Source: Escherichia coli
GTDB taxonomy: Bacteria > Pseudomonadota > Gammaproteobacteria > Enterobacterales > Enterobacteriaceae
NCBI RefSeq assembly: GCF_024223415.1
Contig: NZ_CP100500.1
Strand: one strand, 5' to 3'
DNA: 64,000 nt
The notes beneath the pieces are model-generated. The model saw only the letters and a program-made list of their open reading frames with translations, did not search any database and was not told the origin of the DNA. This document shows positions 2,491 to 53,949 of the stretch, piece after piece. Position 1 is the first letter of the stretch, and the number at the start of each line of letters is the position of its first letter. The position numbers and the translations under genes are program-made.

Positions 2491-3006
2491 TTAATTATAA
2501 TTGATCATAAATATCGCATCCGCTTTCGCCACACCTGGCCGAACACCGCTGGCTAACGCTCGATAATTGGCAAAAAAGTTTAGTGTGACATTGCCATTTG
2601 CATCTACTTCCTCAGTCGGGCTCGCCTCCCCCAGTGCGAGCCGGGAGCGATCGCTATTACGTAATTCGATGGCGACGGTTTGTGCCATTGCGGGATCATC
2701 CAGAGCCAGCAGGTTGACATCAGATGCCGGCGTTCCCGTAAATAAAATCGCAACTGAACCCGGAGGACATCCCTCCAGCCGCAGGCTAAAAGGGACGAGT
2801 GCCGTGGTATCGCCAGCGGTCAGTAGTTGTGTCGTAGGCCATCTGCCTAAATCTACCGTCTTATCCTTATCTGCTGTGTTTACGGTACAGGAGAAATCAA
2901 CCACGTTACCGTGCAAATTGATATTAATCGTTCCTAAAGGGTCAACTGCCCATCCACTGGAACTCCACAGTAGCCCGCAGAAACAGCTAAAGAGTACTCT
3001 TCTCAT
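2491..3006 (-). CDS. sfmF: minor fimbrial subunit
   Basis: 171 aa from MRRVLFSCFCGLL, with a fimbrial subunit C-terminus (ADAIFMINYN). Last gene of the sfm operon. Confidence 0.9.
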   Translation of the reverse strand: MRRVLFSCFCGLLWSSSGWAVDPLGTININLHGNVVDFSCTVNTADKDKTVDLGRWPTTQLLTAGDTTALVPFSLRLEGCPPGSVAILFTGTPASDVNLLALDDPAMAQTVAIELRNSDRSRLALGEASPTEEVDANGNVTLNFFANYRALASGVRPGVAKADAIFMINYN

Positions 3007-3016
3007 TCTCCGTACC

Positions 3017-4024
3017 TCATTGATAATCGACGCGTAAATACCCCAGCGCGCTAAACGGCCCTTCGGTCGGTTTTTGACCGGTAATACTGATAGGCCAGGC
3101 GCGAAGTGTGACATTGGCTACCGCAGCTGCATCCAGACGGAAAGGAATAACGCTATTGAGATCGTTAGGCGTGATCGGCGTATCGTTCTGATCGGCGACA
3201 ATAAAACCTAAATCCTGATTGTCCGACACCATCGCCTGACCAGAAACGGCACTGGCTTCCAGACGCATTGTTAAATAAGCCTGCGCAGCAACATTCGTAC
3301 ATTTGACCGCAATGCTCTTGGTTTGCGGCATGACACCAGCAGGTCGATTACCCGGCCCTGCCGCACTAAATAACGATGCGCCGATATCACCAAAATCAAA
3401 TTCAACAATCTGCCCGGCATTTAATTCGCAGTTTTGCGGTACTTCAACCCGGCCACCAAAACTAATGGTATAAACAGGTGTAACCAACGGATCGTAAGGC
3501 GTTGATGTCACATACACGGTAAACATCACCTGTCTGGGGATCTCCACCATGTTAATAAAGGGCCGAATAACCTTTAAACGAAATATCAAACGAGAATCCA
3601 TCACCCCGAACGGAAGGTTTTGCGAAACGTTAGGATCTGTTCCCATACGAATATAATTTTGCGGGGAAAATTGAATATCCATCACACTATCAACCAGACT
3701 CATCGCACCTAATAGATAATCATTTAATTGCATATATTTATAATTATCTATAGTTTCCTGAACAATAAAGTTAGTGACATAACTACGGTATGTATAATTC
3801 ACCAGCGTGCCGGGTGGACAAATTGCTGACACACCTACCCAGCCGGATTTTTCCGGTAAAACAACAATCTGCCCTGGCTGGTTATTGGTGCTATTAAAGA
3901 CATTTGAGAGATCATAGTGCTCATCTTCTGCTACGCCAGTACTATTTGCACAAACAGTAGCCCAGGATATGTTTGCCAGACACAAACATGCCATCGCCAA
4001 TAATAATCTGCAGATTATCTTCAT
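3017..4024 (-). CDS. sfmH: fimbrial adhesin-like subunit
   Basis: 335-aa ORF with signal peptide and FimH-like two-domain layout. sfm synteny. Confidence 0.85.
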   Translation of the reverse strand: MKIICRLLLAMACLCLANISWATVCANSTGVAEDEHYDLSNVFNSTNNQPGQIVVLPEKSGWVGVSAICPPGTLVNYTYRSYVTNFIVQETIDNYKYMQLNDYLLGAMSLVDSVMDIQFSPQNYIRMGTDPNVSQNLPFGVMDSRLIFRLKVIRPFINMVEIPRQVMFTVYVTSTPYDPLVTPVYTISFGGRVEVPQNCELNAGQIVEFDFGDIGASLFSAAGPGNRPAGVMPQTKSIAVKCTNVAAQAYLTMRLEASAVSGQAMVSDNQDLGFIVADQNDTPITPNDLNSVIPFRLDAAAVANVTLRAWPISITGQKPTEGPFSALGYLRVDYQ

Positions 4025-47808: not shown

Positions 47809-47923
47809 TGAGGGACGTATTTGTATTAGTCGCGACTTGATCTGACACATGGCCTTGAAAGGTTGAGAGTTACCGGTTTTGATATGAGTGTCGAATCCTT
47901 ATCCAAAACAAGAGGTAACTCTC

Positions 47924-48346
47924 ATGCTTCATACTGCCAATCCCGTCATCAAACACAAAGCCGGTTTGCTCAATCTGGCTGAAGAACTCAGCAACGTATC
48001 AAAAGCCTGTAAAATCATGGGCGTTTCGCGTGATACGTTTTATCGTTACCGCGAACTGGTCGCTGAAGGCGGTGTGGATGCGCAGATTAATCGTAGTCGC
48101 CGCGCTCCTAACCTTAAGAACCGTACCGATGAGGCAACTGAACAGGCTGTTGTTGATTACGCCGTCGCTTTCCCGACACATGGTCAGCACCGGGCCAGCA
48201 ACGAGCTGCGTAAACAGGGGGTTTTTATCTCCGACAGTGGTGTCCGTTCTGTCTGGTTACTCCATAACCTTGAGAATCTCAAAAGACGATACTGAACAAA
48301 TTTTATCAGGTGACGTTCCGTAAAAAGTTGTATGGAGTTCTCGATG
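47924..48346 (+). pseudogene. ylbG: IS481-family transposase remnant: N-terminal HTH part, then an internal deletion and a short C-terminal piece
   Basis: MLHTANPVIKHKAGLLNLAEELSNVSKACKIMGVSRDTFYRYR... stops at 48295. FYQVTFRKKLYGVLDA (48299-48346) resembles a segment from far downstream in full-length transposases. Confidence 0.65.
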
Positions 48347-48349
48347 CAG

Positions 48350-48443
48350 TCGGCGCGACTATCAGTACCCCCGCTGAACCCTGGACTATCGGGCCGCCGT
48401 ACTGGGGCATGTCACCCTGGCGTGCCGCTGGTTTTCCGCTAAT
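48350..48443 (-). pseudogene. diverged orphan 5' fragment of an rhs gene (PAAR-like N-terminus) with ATG changed to ATT
   Basis: The reverse complement encodes ISGKPAARQGDMPQYGGPIVQGSAG. It is about 80 percent identical in DNA to 53425-53521, the start of the main rhs gene. Confidence 0.75.
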
Positions 48444-48809
48444 GGTTTATTTCCTCTTTCTTTCCCGGCAAGAATTTATTTTAATCCGGAAGGATTATTT
48501 ATTTTCAGATAGGGACTCACATTAAACACGTAACATTTTAATTAATGCATGGCTGAATATGTATTACACAATGTCAGATATCGTAAAAGACCAGTGCAAT
48601 TCTATGTAAACTCTCTGACTGTTTATTTTATTTGTTGTTTCAGGGTCGGAACTCACCCTCAATAAACAACTGAATACGAGTAGATATTCATCGTCTGAGC
48701 TATATGGCTTTACACAATAGCCGACATGTCTTTTCTCAGTCAGAAATTTTACTTTTCCTCACTACGAAGTTGACGACTTCGATATGGGATAGACTCTTAA
48801 TTCAAGCAA

Positions 48810-49007
48810 TTACTCTGCACAAGCATCAGGCAATCCAGCTCCAATATTTGTTATAAAATAATGCGTAACATTAATTTCACCAACAAAAAAAAGGTTTACG
48901 CTATCCCCTTGCCCTGGTATTTTACCATATTTACACCACACTTTTTTTGTATCTGGATCATTCTCTGATACGATTTTCGCCACTTGTTCCCTGGCCCTCA
49001 CTGTCAA
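48810..49007 (-). CDS. hypothetical 65-aa ORF (TTG start), possibly the frameshifted 3' part of the immunity gene
   Basis: AT-rich. Its frame stays open upstream into the 86-aa ORF as far as the T7/A7 tract. Confidence 0.35.
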   Translation of the reverse strand: MTVRAREQVAKIVSENDPDTKKVWCKYGKIPGQGDSVNLFFVGEINVTHYFITNIGAGLPDACAE

Positions 49008-49039
49008 TGTTTTCTTAAACCTACCCCCATCATCATTTG

Positions 49040-49300
49040 TTAGGGAAAAATAAGAAAAAAATAATCATCTTCTACATTTGTGTATATTGATATATCCACC
49101 GCTACGTGCGGAAAAAAATCTGGGAGCCATGTAAAAACTCCATCATTTTCTGGTATTGCCATATAGTTTATGTAATGTTTACTTACAAGAGATTCATCTT
49201 TGTATAAATAAAGATAAGTAATTACGCATAAAACAACAATGATTATAATAGCAAAAATAAATATTATCATCTTTGATAGATTACTTGAGATAGCCAGCAT
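49040..49300 (-). CDS. candidate Rhs immunity protein, small membrane-anchored
   Basis: 86 aa with N-terminal [24 protein letters not shown]. Overlaps the rhs stop by 20 nt. AT-rich like the toxin tip. Confidence 0.55.
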
Positions 49301-52300
49301 CTTGTAAAGCCTTTATCGTTTTTTTATGCTCTGGATTAATATAATCACTACATCTATCTGAGCAATCTGTTGTTGATGGACATGTCAACCCATGGTCATT
49401 TACAGCCAAGTCTTTTTTATTATCTTCAATCATTTCAGAATGGGATAGCTTTACTTTTCTGCCGTACATACCGAACAGATTTAACCCGTAATCTCTAATC
49501 TCTTTTTCATAACCCAGCCCTTTCGCCGATCGGCTAACACCAGCGTCATTTAATTTAGACACTCGACAAAATGCCATACAATGGAAAAATTGATCAGTCC
49601 CACCTAAATTTAATCTCTTCATATCTTCATAAGTATCAGATAATATATCCCATGCTCTTTGATGGTTTAGTTGATCTTTTCTTCTTATTAGCGCTACATC
49701 TGCGGGACTTAACCCTAATGGATCAATACCATTCACCGGATTCAGCGGATACGCATACAGACTCCATCCCCCCTCCAGCCCTATCGGGTCCTGAGTGATA
49801 TACCGCCCCTGCAACGGATCGTAGTACCGGTTCCGGTTGTAGTACAGCCCCGACTCCTTATCATACTGCTGCCCCGGCAGCCGGTACGGCTGGTGCAGGT
49901 GATGCGGGTTCTCCTCATTAAGCTGGTTGCCCCATTCATCATATTCCGCGCTCCACGCCGTATTGCCGTCTTCACTGATAAGCGCCAGCGGCAGGCCCCG
50001 GTAGTCACAGTGATAAAGATGTATTTTTCGCTCAGGCAAATAAACCGGCTCTATCTGTGCCGCCAGCCGCTCCACCGTCAGCCCGCACTGCGCAAGCCAC
50101 TGGCGGCTTTCACTGCTCACGCAGTTTGCCCGGATTTCCCCCTCCAGCCTGTCCAGCAGCCCCACCAGTTCAGCCGGGAACACCACACCGTGGCCGTCTT
50201 CGCTCCCTTCCTGCTGCAGCTTCTCCGCCAGGCTGCGGCACTGCGCTTTCTCCCGTTCACCGTTGTCTGTTTCGATGCGGATGAGCGGCGCGAAGCTCCC
50301 CGGCTGGTATACCGTCTGGATACGCGTGGTGTCGGTCTGTACCGTCGTCAGCCGGTCGCCGTCCCATCCGTACCACGTCACCTCCGGTTTACGCGACAGC
50401 GACATCCATCCCGTCAGGTCACGCTCCCGCCGCCATACCCGTTTCGCCATTCGCCGTCCCAGCGGGTCACAGAGGTAGCGGCTCTCGACCAGTGGCTCGC
50501 CATGCTGTATCCGCGTGTGGAACACCAGGCGGTGCTGGCTGTCGTAGTGATAGTGGTGGGTCCGCTCGTCGTCCGTCCGTATCACACCCGCCGGGATGCG
50601 GTCCGTCTTCTCCGTCAGCCTGCCGTATTCATCGTGGCGGTAGACATAGTGCGCATCCTCCGCGATGCGGTTATCCGGCCACACTGTGAGTGTACTGTCC
50701 GGGTGCAGCTCCGGGTCCGGCAGCCGGTTTCCCGCCGGGTCGGTCGCATACGGGATGCGGATGTCCAGGTCCGGTGCGAGGGTGCGCACGCTCTCCAGCC
50801 TGCCCGTGGCGCTGTAGCCGTATTCCCGCGTCTGCCGGGGGGCGCTGATGCGCACCAGGTCGCCGTTGTCACTCCACCCGTAGTCACGGTCATATACCAG
50901 GCTGTTCAGGTGCTGGCTCTGTAACCGGCCTGCGGGGGTGTATGTGTTGGTCAGTTCATATGCGGCATTACTGCCTGCCATGCTGCCGAAGCTGCGCACC
51001 GTCTCCCGGTGCAGGCGGTCGCGCGTGAACTCCAGCAGCGGCGTCCCGCCCAGCTTCATTCCCGCCAGGTAACCGCTGCCATACGTCAGCCACTCCACCG
51101 GCGGCAGGCTGTCCGGCGTGACGCGGTTTGCCAGCCCCTGTTCGTTGTATGCGTGTTTCGTCTCATGCTGCCACAGCAGTTCCCCCGTCTCCGGGTTCTC
51201 CACCGTCTGGCGTTCGCCGGTCAGGCGGCCCTTATCGTCGTAGCCGTAGTGGGCAGCGACACGGTGGCCTTCACTGAGATGGCTGATGTCTGTCAGCCAG
51301 CCGTGGCCGTCATACTGCCACTGCTCTGCCGGTTCACCGTTTACCGTGCGGTGAGTGATACAGTCCGATTCATCGTAGTACCAGAGGGTGACAAGCCCCT
51401 CATCTTCACTCTGCGTGAGTTTTCCTGTCAGGTCATAATGATAACGCAGCGTCCGCCCGTCAAAGCCGCCCTGCTGTACCAGGCGGTCCAGCGCATCGTA
51501 ACTGAAATCACTGTGGCTGCCGTTCTCGTTAGTCAGACTGATGACACGTCCGGCAACATCGTACTCCATACTGCGCGTCAGCCCGCCCTGCGTGGTGCTG
51601 ACCGCCTTTCCCCACGCATCGTACTGTGTCTCGCTCCGGTTGCCGTCCGGGGTGATAACGGCAGTCAGGTCGCCTGCGGCGTTGTACTCATACCGCGTTT
51701 CATGGCCCTGTGCGTCTTTCACCGAGATTAACCGGCCACGGTTGTCATAGCGGCGGTAAAGGCTGATGCCTTCCTCGCGGTGGACCGCCGTCATCTGGCC
51801 GAAGCGGTCGTATTCATAGCGGGTCTGGTAGCCCGAGCAGTCGGTGAACGCCAGCAACTGACCGTAGCGGCTCCAGGTCATCTGCCGGGTGCTGCCCGTC
51901 GCATCTGTTGTCGTGGCCGGTAATTCACTGTGCGGATTATCATAAGCATGCCGGATGACGTCCCCGCTGCGCGATGTCTCCGATACCAGCCTGCCCGGTT
52001 CATCATATGCCCGGCGGCTCTCCAGCCCGTCCGGGGACACCACCGCCGTCAGCTGGTTCCCGTCGTTATAGTAAAATTTCGTCTCCCGCCCGTCCGGTGT
52101 GGTGATGTCCGTGATATCGCCGGACACCACATTCAGACCGTACTCTGTCCGCCGTCCCGCCGCGTCCGTCTGCGCCGTGAGCCTTCCTGCCGCGTCATAC
52201 CCGCTGTGCGTGACGCTGCCGTCCGCCAGTTCTTTTTTCACCACCCGCTTCAGCCCGGCCCCGCCTTCTGTATGCAGCACCTCACGCCGGTTCAGGCTAT

Positions 52301-53521
52301 CCGTGACGGTGATGCGGTCCTGCTCATACTGGTAGCGGTAACTCAGGCCTGCCGGGTTCAGCTGCTCCACCACCCGCCCGGTATCGTCGTAGCGGTAGCG
52401 CATCTCCGGCCTTCCCGCATAACGGTGCCCCACCATCCGGCCCGGGTGCTGCGCGTCATACGTGAAAGCGCGCACCTGCGTATTGCTGCGGTCATATACC
52501 GCCAGCAGTTCACCGGCTTCCGTATACGTGTACCGCACCAGTGGCGCACCGGGCAGGCTCTCCGGGTATGCCGGATCGTGCATCAGCCACACCGCCGAAA
52601 GGCGGATGCCCCTGTCGGGGCCGTATTCGGTACCGGGCAGTGTGTCGGGGAACGCTGAGGCTGAGAGAGGGCGGGAACGGTCAGAAGAAGATAGCGAAGA
52701 GGTGCGGGCCTCTTCCGCACGCTGCGCCTGCGTGGTCAGCACCAGACGGAACTCCCGCCCGGCACCGTCCGTCACGCCGGTGATTCCCCCGGCCAGGTCA
52801 CCGGCGGCCTCACGCCGGTGATTCCCCCGGCCAGGTCACCGGCGGCCTCACGCCGGTACGTCAGCGTCCGCCCGAAGCGGTCCGCCATCCCGGTAAGCAC
52901 CCGGTACGGCGGCAGCGGCGCTGGCAGTACGTCCTCAGCACCCGGCACCCGCTCAGACCACCCCAGTATCCACCACGGCCCCTGTGCGCTGTTGGTCGCC
53001 AGGTAAAGATGCGGGCTTAACCGGATATCCGGCGGCAGCGACGCCCACAGCCGTGCCAGCGTATGGCCGTCCGGCTGTGCTGCCTTACCACCGCGCACCA
53101 GCCACAGGGACTCGCTGCGGCTGTACACCGCCTCACCCGGCAGCAGCGGCTCAAAGTGAATGCTCCGTCCGCCGTTGTCGTTGAGTACCAGTGCATCATC
53201 GCGTAGCTGTAAGCGGATATCAGAAGGCGCTTTCCAGCCGGGGCCAAAAATCCCCACCGGTGCAGGCGTCTTCGTCCGGTAGCTGCTGTAGGTGCGGGAG
53301 AGAATGAACGGCAGCGGGCCGGGCAGCGCAAGGTCCGTCTCGCCGGGCAGCACCTTCGCCCCCAGCAGCGGATTTACCGGGTTGCCCGAAGTCATCCCGC
53401 CCGGACACACCGAGCACGCCACGCCAGTTGGCGCGCCAATTCTTACACCTGCCGAACCCTGGACAATGGGACCGCCATACTGAGTCATATCTCCCTGACG
53501 CGCCGCTGGTTTTCCGCTCAT
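49281..53521 (-). pseudogene. rhsD: RhsD-type polymorphic toxin gene, frameshifted by a 38-bp tandem duplication
   Basis: N-terminal MSGKPAARQGDMTQYGGPIVQG, YD-repeat core and DPLGL demarcation (49710-49724). The reading frame is broken between ORFs 52772-53521 and 49281-52775. Confidence 0.85.
52773..52848. repeat. perfect tandem duplication, 2 x 38 bp (CACGCCGGTGATTCCCCCGGCCAGGTCACCGGCGGCCT), followed by a third 9-bp CACGCCGGT
   Basis: Copies at 52773-52810 and 52811-52848 are identical. Because 38 is not a multiple of 3, the duplication causes a frameshift. Confidence 0.95.
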
Positions 53522-53949
53522 ATAAAGTGCCCTTTTAGTTATTGTTCATATCCCTGTGTTAGTAACAAAAAAATAAAATGACACACAAGACCAGCTAATG
53601 TATTTATATATTTTTCACATAAACTTATTTGTTCTCAATCAACAACAACTGTTATTACAGGTCACTTTCAATATTTTATTAAACTAAAATTTTTAGCACA
53701 GATGAATTCATCATCAACAAATTCACTATATGGATAATATCCATTCAACGCATATGATTTATGATTTTATTAGTCTGAGTTATTTTTGTAGGGCTATATT
53801 TAAAATTATTAAACTCCACCGATTCAGATTAATATCAGCAATAGAAAGATAGGAAATCACCAATTCAATAACATCATCAATGAAACATATTGTAGAATTA
53901 ATTTAAACAAGGCGTTCCATTCAACCAGAACGCCCCTTATTTACTCTCA

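Follow-up and report, generated by a model that had tools for sequence, protein, structure and literature searches.

The window analysed here, a stretch of 64,000 nucleotides from Escherichia coli (contig NZ_CP100500.1, assembly GCF_024223415.1), carries on its minus strand an rhs gene (49281-53521) whose C-terminal tip, together with the small gene ybbD that overlaps its end, is the subject of this report. The surrounding genes, ybbA, ybbP, rhs, selU, allS, allA, allR and gcl, are those of the E. coli rhsD locus. From the list of open reading frames (ORFs) and the Pfam matches, the rhs gene can be followed from a PAAR-like start through DUF6531, RHS repeats and an RHS core to the tip. The hallmarks of an Rhs/YD protein are present, namely the repeats, the core and a DPxGL motif ahead of a variable tip, and the reading frame is interrupted, the gene being split into two ORFs. 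The N-terminal ORF (52772-53521) matches DUF6531 (E = 1.9e-19) and, weakly, a PAAR motif (E = 0.014); the longer ORF (49281-52775) matches RHS_repeat (E = 1.4e-66) and RHS (PF03527, E = 7.6e-15). This last match precedes the sequence DPLGL (minus strand, 49710-49724), which by direct reading is the boundary between core and tip and the expected site of autoproteolytic release. Cleavage at a motif of the DPLGL type is well established for Rhs/YD proteins.

Past DPLGL the minus strand encodes a tip of 142 aa (49284-49709, stop codon 49281-49283). An initial annotation of this DNA had quoted the same 142 residues and had called them an Rhs C-terminal toxin tip; direct reading agrees with the quoted sequence exactly, and the succession of RHS core, DPLGL and variable C-terminal domain agrees with the call. 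The sharp loss of GC that it had described beyond DPLGL is readily measured, the GC fraction being 0.58-0.66 in the Rhs core and only 0.29-0.38 over 49100-49699. The interval 49040-49709 holds two items, the tip (49281-49709) and an overlapping ORF of 86 aa (49040-49300) that begins 20 nt before the toxin stop and has a strongly hydrophobic N-terminus, consistent with the membrane anchor suspected earlier.

A serum amyloid A-like tip

The best Pfam match of the tip alone is serum amyloid A (SAA; PF00277, E = 2.2e-4, 22.0 bits), and a sequence search of the PDB at E ≤ 10 returned four matches, all four of them SAA. An exhaustive search by HMMER, run with a small profile of the tip, yielded 126 relatives at E ≤ 1e-3, including 50 at E ≤ 1e-10, while a word-indexed homologue search reached relatives in Enterobacterales only. 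In nearly all of the 126 the domain forms the very C-terminal end, a placement that marks the tips of polymorphic toxins. When a profile of 53 sequences was compared with known structures it matched 7zh7 (E = 1.9e-16), mouse SAA3 (4.9e-13) and human SAA1 (9.3e-13), and besides SAA nothing in the PDB fell under an E of 0.07. Moreover, 43 of the 53 aligned sequences themselves match PF00277 at E ≤ 0.01, the best of them at E = 9.7e-25.

An AlphaFold2 model of the tip built on the 53-sequence alignment had a pLDDT of 95.2 and a pTM of 0.87; a model from a 6-sequence alignment reached a pLDDT of 55.5 and was discarded. The modelled helices span residues 2-33, 39-51, 56-78, 90-108, 116-123 and 129-137, in line, as far as the helix boundaries go, with the four-helix cone and short fifth helix, packed beside helices 2 and 4, that characterise the SAA-like (prok-SAA) domain. 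We ran the 142-aa tip through Foldseek against the PDB, a check that the initial annotation had itself proposed. The top seven matches are all SAA1 or SAA3 (probability 1.00, target-normalised TM 0.68-0.74), and beyond these seven the probability is at most 0.14. Thus the tip, earlier held to be unassignable, can be assigned.

In a computational survey (PMC12419801; Burroughs, Nicastro and Aravind, eLife 2025) prok-SAA was described as a Lipocone family recruited as a toxin tip, delivered by type VI secretion systems (T6SS) or MuF and followed by a gene labelled 'TM+Imm-SAA', where TM stands for transmembrane. The sequence file published for that family holds WP_074823867.1 and HAU8267270.1, to which our tip is 63% and 60% identical, respectively; the exact E. 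coli tip sequence is absent from the file. Like prok-SAA, the tip is the C-terminal end of an RHS/T6SS-type protein, has a four-helix core with a short fifth helix, is followed by a gene for a TM-anchored immunity protein, and carries a His on helix 2, a Glu on helix 3, an Asp on helix 4 and an s-N-x-x-G motif. On the profile matches and the modelled fold, we consider its placement as an SAA-like, or prok-SAA, toxin domain of the SAA-Wnt (SAW) clade of the Lipocone superfamily to be solid. This assignment is not new: the protein is annotated in K-12, a likeness to SAA was reported in 2020 (PMC7216683), and the family was defined in 2025 (PMC12419801). A match to a characterised toxin family, named in the initial annotation as the outcome that would overturn its view, was therefore obtained in part, the family being one described by computation only.

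The animal proteins (human SAA1, 4ip8; mouse SAA3, 4q5g and 6pxz) are homologous helical bundles and have in common with the tip the motifs Y..M+.AN..G.DKYFH, RE and DS..D..AN..G. They differ from it in lacking all four of its cysteines and its extra C-terminal helix (129-137), and in being secreted apolipoproteins with no immunity partner. A match of the tip to Peptidase_C7 (E = 0.018) was set aside as noise because no member of the family reproduces it. One relative of 1,854 aa (P0104) matches the C-terminal half of the domain in part, five times over and once every 365 residues, where the usual arrangement is a single C-terminal tip.

The initial annotation had also compared the tip with a string given as the tip of K-12 RhsD, and had suggested a distant common fold. 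That string, DAMRHCYLMCRMTK...GKNHE...ERIMDLKNNTVG, is found verbatim in K-12, but in the tip of RhsE (b1456), which contains ...DAMRHCYLMCRMTKTFGSTIADVIGKNHEAAGDRQGQPAKERIMDLKNNTVG... and matches DUF6973 (PF22322) at E = 2e-12. The true RhsD tip, LQTWDDARSGACTGG..., has no H-C-x3-C-R motif and matches DUF4329 at E = 4.7e-38, and a Pfam scan found no DUF4329 in the window tip. With RhsE rather than RhsD as partner, the suggested kinship holds: hhalign aligned the tip family with the single RhsE tip at 91% probability (E = 1.1e-6), bringing together D39, H43, C44, C48, E70, D100, N104, G107, C110, C116 and C120. The two tips share D-x3-H-C-x3-C-R-x-[ST]-K, the Glu of helix 3, D-x3-N-x2-G and a C-terminal C-x3-C. 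In the Lipocone data of PMC12419801 the RhsE tip is listed as Min-Wnt, and its likeness to our tip is the published sister-family relation of prok-SAA and Min-Wnt. The window tip stands in Min-Wnt's clade and outside Min-Wnt itself: it has F-H-C and K-E in place of the 'R-H ... H-E' signature, and no DUF6973 match was obtained in the Pfam scan. The immunity proteins differ as well, being YdcD for RhsE and YbbD for the tip. K-12 therefore has two Lipocone tips of the SAW clade, those of rhsE and ylbH, both in pseudogenes; in the segment 1527000-1532000 of NC_000913.3 the rhsE tip occupies approximately positions 2475-2939 and ydcD positions 2923-3405.

These comparisons bear on the initial view that the tip represents an unassigned, novel family with the K-12 RhsD tip as its nearest relative. 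The tip does fall under the Pfam gathering score for SAA, an NCBIfam scan of it gave no match, and it does share a pattern with another K-12 Rhs tip. Nevertheless, given a strong and already published SAA/prok-SAA assignment, and an RhsD tip that belongs to DUF4329 and lacks the motif, we regard a novel family as extremely unlikely.

Conserved residues, YbbD and the site of action

Conservation was computed over 82 near-full-length relatives and is given here in tip numbering. D39, H43, C44, C116 and C120 score 1.0, C48, D100, N104 and G107 score 0.99, and D96, E70 and D73 score 0.95, 0.93 and 0.89, respectively. The HCxxxCR motif singled out in the initial annotation is thus no chance pattern, its His and both of its Cys being invariant or nearly so; by direct reading it lies in F-H43-C44-M-A-F-C48-R49-V-S51-K52. 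The conserved positions fall into four blocks on the minus strand. The helix-2 motif D39-QFF-H43-C44-MAF-C48-R-V-S-K52 (49554-49595) aligns with 'DKYFHA' of SAA, and the helix-3 motif E70-I-R-D73 (49491-49502), which would supply a catalytic Glu as well as the polar residue that closes the helix, aligns with 'RE'. The helix-4 motif D96-NKK-D100-LAV-N104-DH-G107 (49389-49424) aligns with 'EDSxADQxANEWG', and helix 5 contributes the invariant Cys pair C116-SDR-C120 (49350-49364). The active site predicted for Lipocone proteins consists of a His on helix 2, a Glu and a polar end residue on helix 3 and an Asp on helix 4, and an s-N-x-x-G-R motif is the signature of the SAA-Wnt clade (PMC12419801). 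The residues of the tip on helices 2, 3 and 4 coincide with this definition, and A103-N104-x-x-G107 is present.

The four cysteines may form two disulfides, C44-C120 and C48-C116. This pairing is suggested because two published prok-SAA sequences, as excerpted from PMC12419801, lack C44 and C120 jointly and keep C48 and C116.

The gene that overlaps the end of the tip is ybbD (minus strand, 48810-49300; PF26610 YbbD_head, NF011298), which we take as the cognate immunity gene and which is disrupted in the window. It was recognised from NCBIfam matches and from alignment with intact alleles; the PF26610 assignments of YbbD and its homologues come from precomputed annotations. A search for related loci with a narrow tip alignment gave seven loci. 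A YbbD-family gene with a TM anchor or a lipobox abuts the tip in seven lineages, E. coli included. In CP029992.1 the partner is 33% identical to YbbD (E = 7e-18). On another contig (L007) it is a YbbD homologue of 49% identity with the same 20-nt gene overlap, and the tip there is about 81% identical to ours, a figure that is taken from the near-identical P0008. Partners in Neisseria and Rodentibacter have 160-168 aa with an N-terminal TM helix, and those in metagenome-assembled genomes of Burkholderiales and Lysobacterales have 150-155 aa with a lipobox; all four of these abut the toxin stop and carry W-[IL]-P-x-F-[FLV]-P. The five proteins aligned, namely E. coli YbbD, P0149, the L007 partner, the CP029992.1 partner and one from a metagenome (L003), all keep two extracytoplasmic Cys. 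The Imm-SAA of PMC12419801 is described with four conserved Cys, whereas YbbD has two.

The anchor of the YbbD family has basic residues before it and acidic residues after it, and by the positive-inside rule this arrangement would place the YbbD domain in the periplasm. According to PMC12419801 the immunity proteins of Lipocone toxins are all TM proteins or lipoproteins, and TelC, a toxin of the same superfamily, acts only outside the cytoplasm. Taken together, the four invariant Cys of the tip, the TM or lipoprotein nature of its immunity partners and the analogy with TelC suggest that the toxin acts in the periplasm or on the outer side of the inner membrane. BteO, a Bacteroides fragilis effector of the sister family Min-Wnt, likewise shows toxicity in the periplasm only, and loses it when the equivalents of the H, E and D are mutated (PMC12541434).

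Among the Rhs tips of E. coli that have been characterised, most act in the cytoplasm, and a nuclease or an enzyme that depletes NAD or nucleotides might have been expected here too, many tips of Rhs and contact-dependent inhibition proteins being nucleases. We consider such an activity scarcely plausible for this tip. No nuclease or other enzyme family was matched by the tip in Pfam and NCBIfam or by the family profile in the PDB, and the fold is that of a helical SAA bundle. Four invariant Cys, and partners that are membrane-anchored or lipoproteins in every case, also argue against a cytoplasmic target.

A proposed mode of action

On balance we think it reasonably probable that the tip is an SAA-like toxin domain at the end of a PAAR-like/DUF6531-Rhs toxin of the rhsD locus, that it attacks lipid head groups in the periplasm, and that YbbD confers immunity. 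By analogy with the biology of other Rhs proteins, the Rhs shell would enclose the tip and self-cleavage at DPLGL would free it, and contact-dependent delivery, most likely by T6SS, would carry it into a neighbouring cell. In the oxidising periplasm the disulfides C44-C120 and C48-C116 would lock helix 5 onto helix 2. The pocket predicted from H43, E70, D73, D96/D100 and N104 would then attack lipids in the inner membrane's outer leaflet at their phosphate-linked head groups. Its most likely substrate would be an undecaprenyl-pyrophosphate-linked precursor of the cell wall such as lipid II, so that envelope synthesis would be blocked. The producer would be guarded by YbbD, a protein of 163 aa with an N-terminal membrane anchor and a putative periplasmic domain, whose gene overlaps the toxin stop.

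The lipid-head-group step is the least certain of these and follows a family-level analogy with TelC. This LXG toxin of Streptococcus intermedius is a lipid II phosphatase, is placed in the same superfamily by PMC12419801 and has an extracytoplasmic immunity protein; it differs from the tip in belonging to another clade, in its delivery by a type VII secretion system and in its Gram-positive setting. It serves as the template for the proposed chemistry. No match of the tip to TelC was seen either with the family profile against the PDB or with Foldseek.

Several points weigh against this proposal. Cleavage or exchange of head groups has been shown for TelC and for PTDSS1/2 only and is predicted for the rest of the Lipocone superfamily (PMC12419801), so that the chemistry suggested for the tip would be carried over from families far removed from it. 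By itself the tip reaches 22.0 bits, short of the Pfam gathering score of 30.8 bits, and Leu108 stands where the clade motif s-N-x-x-G-R has its Arg. In E. coli O157:H7 ybbD carries two breaks and the toxin ORF none, a combination that is odd for an active toxin that would endanger its own producer. Finally, BteO, the only close structural neighbour to have been studied experimentally, is reported to be non-catalytic and to bind proteins of the OmpA family (PMC12541434), and human SAA is reported to bind OmpA of E. coli (Hari-Dass 2005, as cited in PMC12419801).

The last two findings suggest a different use of the same fold in the same compartment. Rather than catalysing a reaction, the His/Glu/Asp groove might bind the peptidoglycan-anchoring C-domain of OmpA-family proteins (OmpA, Pal or MotB-like); the outer membrane would be uncoupled from the wall, envelope homeostasis would be disturbed, and YbbD would occupy the groove. 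BteO is a T6SS effector of Bacteroides fragilis that is toxic only in the periplasm (PMC12541434), and its immunity protein is BtiO. It was the only PDB match of a single Min-Wnt sequence taken from the Lipocone data (9uu0, E = 1.9e-4, chain residues 422-500), and the tip family is in turn related to Min-Wnt tips by the hhalign result given above. Mutation of R143/H144, H167/E168, D187 or D191 abolishes the toxicity of BteO (PMC12541434). With H144 equated to chain residue H440, as counted along the printed alignment, these essential residues fall on F-R-H ... A-H-E ... D-x3-D-L-x-N-N-x-x-G-R, that is, on the Lipocone pocket. The inactive mutants lose binding to OmpA9, and over-expression of OmpA6, 8 or 9 suppresses BteO toxicity (PMC12541434). 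The BteO paper makes no mention of Wnt, Lipocone, DUF6973 or lipid II.

We nevertheless see OmpA binding by the tip as possible but rather unlikely. Compared directly by profile, the tip family and the BteO segment show no significant match (probability 0.4%, E = 0.14), the helix-4 motif alone being aligned. The claim that BteO is not an enzyme rests on its lack of peptidoglycan hydrolase and amidase activity, and cleavage of a lipid carrier lies outside those assays (PMC12541434). BteO also remains toxic without OmpA9, and BteO is lethal whereas the triple ompA mutant is viable (PMC12541434). Furthermore, the same polar residues are invariant in families with proven enzymes, a pattern more usual in catalysis than in the binding of a variable protein, and no OmpA-like domain was detectable in YbbD by Pfam scan.

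Catalysis by the tip and OmpA binding by BteO need not belong to separate stories. Tentatively, and with more doubt than conviction, we raise the idea that the SAA-Wnt groove of the E. coli tip, the RhsE tip, BteO and animal SAA serves a single ancestral function in the periplasm of Gram-negative bacteria, so that the two published accounts describe one mechanism. If so, either BteO and its relatives would be unrecognised phosphoesterases of lipid II or the undecaprenyl carrier, with OmpA binding secondary, or the SAA-like toxins would seize OmpA-type anchors of peptidoglycan, as would human SAA by descent. SAA-like bacterial toxins have been proposed as ancestors of human SAA, whose real function is debated. 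A ylbH-type tip with an intact YbbD, such as that of strain SCU-316, would be the simplest system in which to decide between the two outcomes. E. coli is a tractable host that offers toxin, immunity protein and natural broken alleles, and is thus a convenient model. The role of the H43/E70/D100 pocket would settle between the enzymatic prediction made for Lipocone proteins and the non-enzymatic OmpA model put forward for BteO.

Two lesions and the distribution of the module

Both genes of the module are broken in the window. In ybbD the lesion is a homopolymer of seven T (T7; minus strand, 49055-49061) at a place where intact alleles have eight (T8), as established by alignment. The intact YbbD of the T8 allele is WP_000879783.1. 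The 86-aa ORF corresponds to the N-terminal fragment of YbbD and a 65-aa ORF (48810-49007) to its C-terminal part; they match positions 1-85 and 99-163 of the 163-aa NF011298 model at E = 2.9e-52 and 6e-42, respectively. Each ORF stays under the 326-bit cut-off of that model because the gene is split. The T7 run is the sole difference from an intact allele, and the 86-aa ORF, which the initial annotation had taken for the immunity gene, is therefore the front half of ybbD rather than a complete gene. That annotation was right to call it unlike K-12 YbbC, to which it is unrelated both by NCBIfam and in sequence.

The frame of rhs is disrupted by a tandem duplication of 38 bp, ACCGGCGTGAGGCCGCCGGTGACCTGGCCGGGGGAATC, present as two perfect copies read directly from the minus strand (52820-52857 and 52782-52819). 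The upstream frameshift had been noticed earlier, and the duplication at 52782-52857 is its cause, an intact homologue being without it. The perfect matches listed among complete E. coli genomes all span 83 nt, which corresponds to one copy; the duplication therefore looks confined to this strain, although it could also be an assembly error. Intact Rhs homologues of 1,400 aa and an intact 163-aa YbbD occur together at loci L002 and L021. In SCU-316, the closest relative (99.9% identity), Rhs is intact at 1,400 aa, its tip is identical, and YbbD is intact with 163 aa. With both rhs and ybbD broken, the module is non-functional as it stands and cannot work in this strain.

In K-12 the protein ylbH (b0499) has a tip 100% identical to that of the window, and ybbD (b0501) has the same T7 frameshift, the same flanking DNA and the same position between ybbP and selU/allS. 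The K-12 ylbH-ybbD pair is an orphan pair of pseudogenes, consisting of a short core remnant with the tip and lying downstream of the main rhsD, which has the DUF4329 tip, and of ybbC; in the window, unlike K-12, the tip ends a full-length rhs gene. The earlier proposal of a toxin/immunity specificity different from that of K-12 is correct in so far as the partner is unrelated to YbbC, but K-12 itself has the identical module. The RhsD of O157:H7 (z0651) has a tip that differs by one residue from that of the window. There the rhs ORF is intact, whereas that of the window is frameshifted, and ybbD has two poly-T slips against one in the window. A study in silico of enterohaemorrhagic E. coli modelled the C-terminus of this protein on human SAA1, found PF00277 in seven PAAR-Rhs proteins and took the likeness to SAA to hint at a part in the immune response of the host (PMC7216683). 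Thus the tip is identical or one residue off among K-12, SCU-316, O157:H7 and the window, and every residue of the pocket is kept.

Among 5,426 complete E. coli genomes, 2,866 carry the tip and the stretch downstream of it, and the window copy is a decayed version of a module that half of all E. coli possess, K-12 included. In about 965 of the genomes the match extends further into the Rhs core, as in the window; the rest match from the start of the K-12 orphan only, and these other carriers have the module behind another main tip. Allele counts for ybbD were likewise taken over complete E. coli genomes: among about 2,325 with the segment, the exact broken T7 allele occurs in 1,414 and the exact intact T8 allele in 538. 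A second poly-T run, slip-prone like the first, lies at 48885-48892; in the window, as in K-12, the first run is T7 and the second T8. These runs may be sites of recurrent slippage or phase variation.

Such a record of decay raises the possibility that the domain is an inert relic, no longer or never a toxin in E. coli, and that YbbD is an unrelated small membrane protein. The K-12 orphan pseudogenes, the double lesion of the window, the excess of T7 over T8 and the tolerance by O157:H7 of an intact toxin ORF beside a broken ybbD would all fit such a relic. We also found no experimental work on the tip in the literature on ylbH, on YbbD with Rhs and on Lipocone toxins. However, the near-identity of the tip across these strains and its undamaged pocket speak against a relic, and intact toxin and intact YbbD coexist in close relatives. 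The pairing of toxin with YbbD, and the overlap of their genes, are kept across distant Proteobacteria. In addition, YbbD diverges faster than the toxin (49% against about 81% identity), which is the usual signature of a toxin and its immunity protein. An inert relic is therefore improbable in our view, and we retain the reading of the pair as toxin and immunity protein.

Some further observations concern copies of the tip elsewhere. In E. coli ECGI0523 (CP178306.1, locus L016, 2501-2539), at the same chromosomal position, a variant tip stops after 12 residues, and beyond this stop the remainder shows only 48% identity; it may be a further decayed or a divergent allele. Two sequences attributed to other organisms, one from a bin labelled 'uncultured Alistipes sp.' (CASFSC010000074.1) and a partial one from Ligilactobacillus salivarius (P0026), are 100% and 91% identical to the tip, and are most likely E. 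coli DNA introduced by contamination during binning or assembly rather than cases of horizontal transfer.

Flanking the module, an AT-rich non-coding stretch extends over 48300-48800. Between ybbD and selU lie remnants of ylbI/ylbG, among them an ORF of 135 aa on the plus strand (47888-48323) that has the look of a transposase-type helix-turn-helix (HTH) N-terminus and that is annotated in related genomes as an incomplete HTH protein. On the other side, directly upstream of the rhs start and between ybbP and rhs, the GC fraction is 0.25-0.30 across 53500-53900, and this AT-rich stretch could be a promoter region bound by a silencer.

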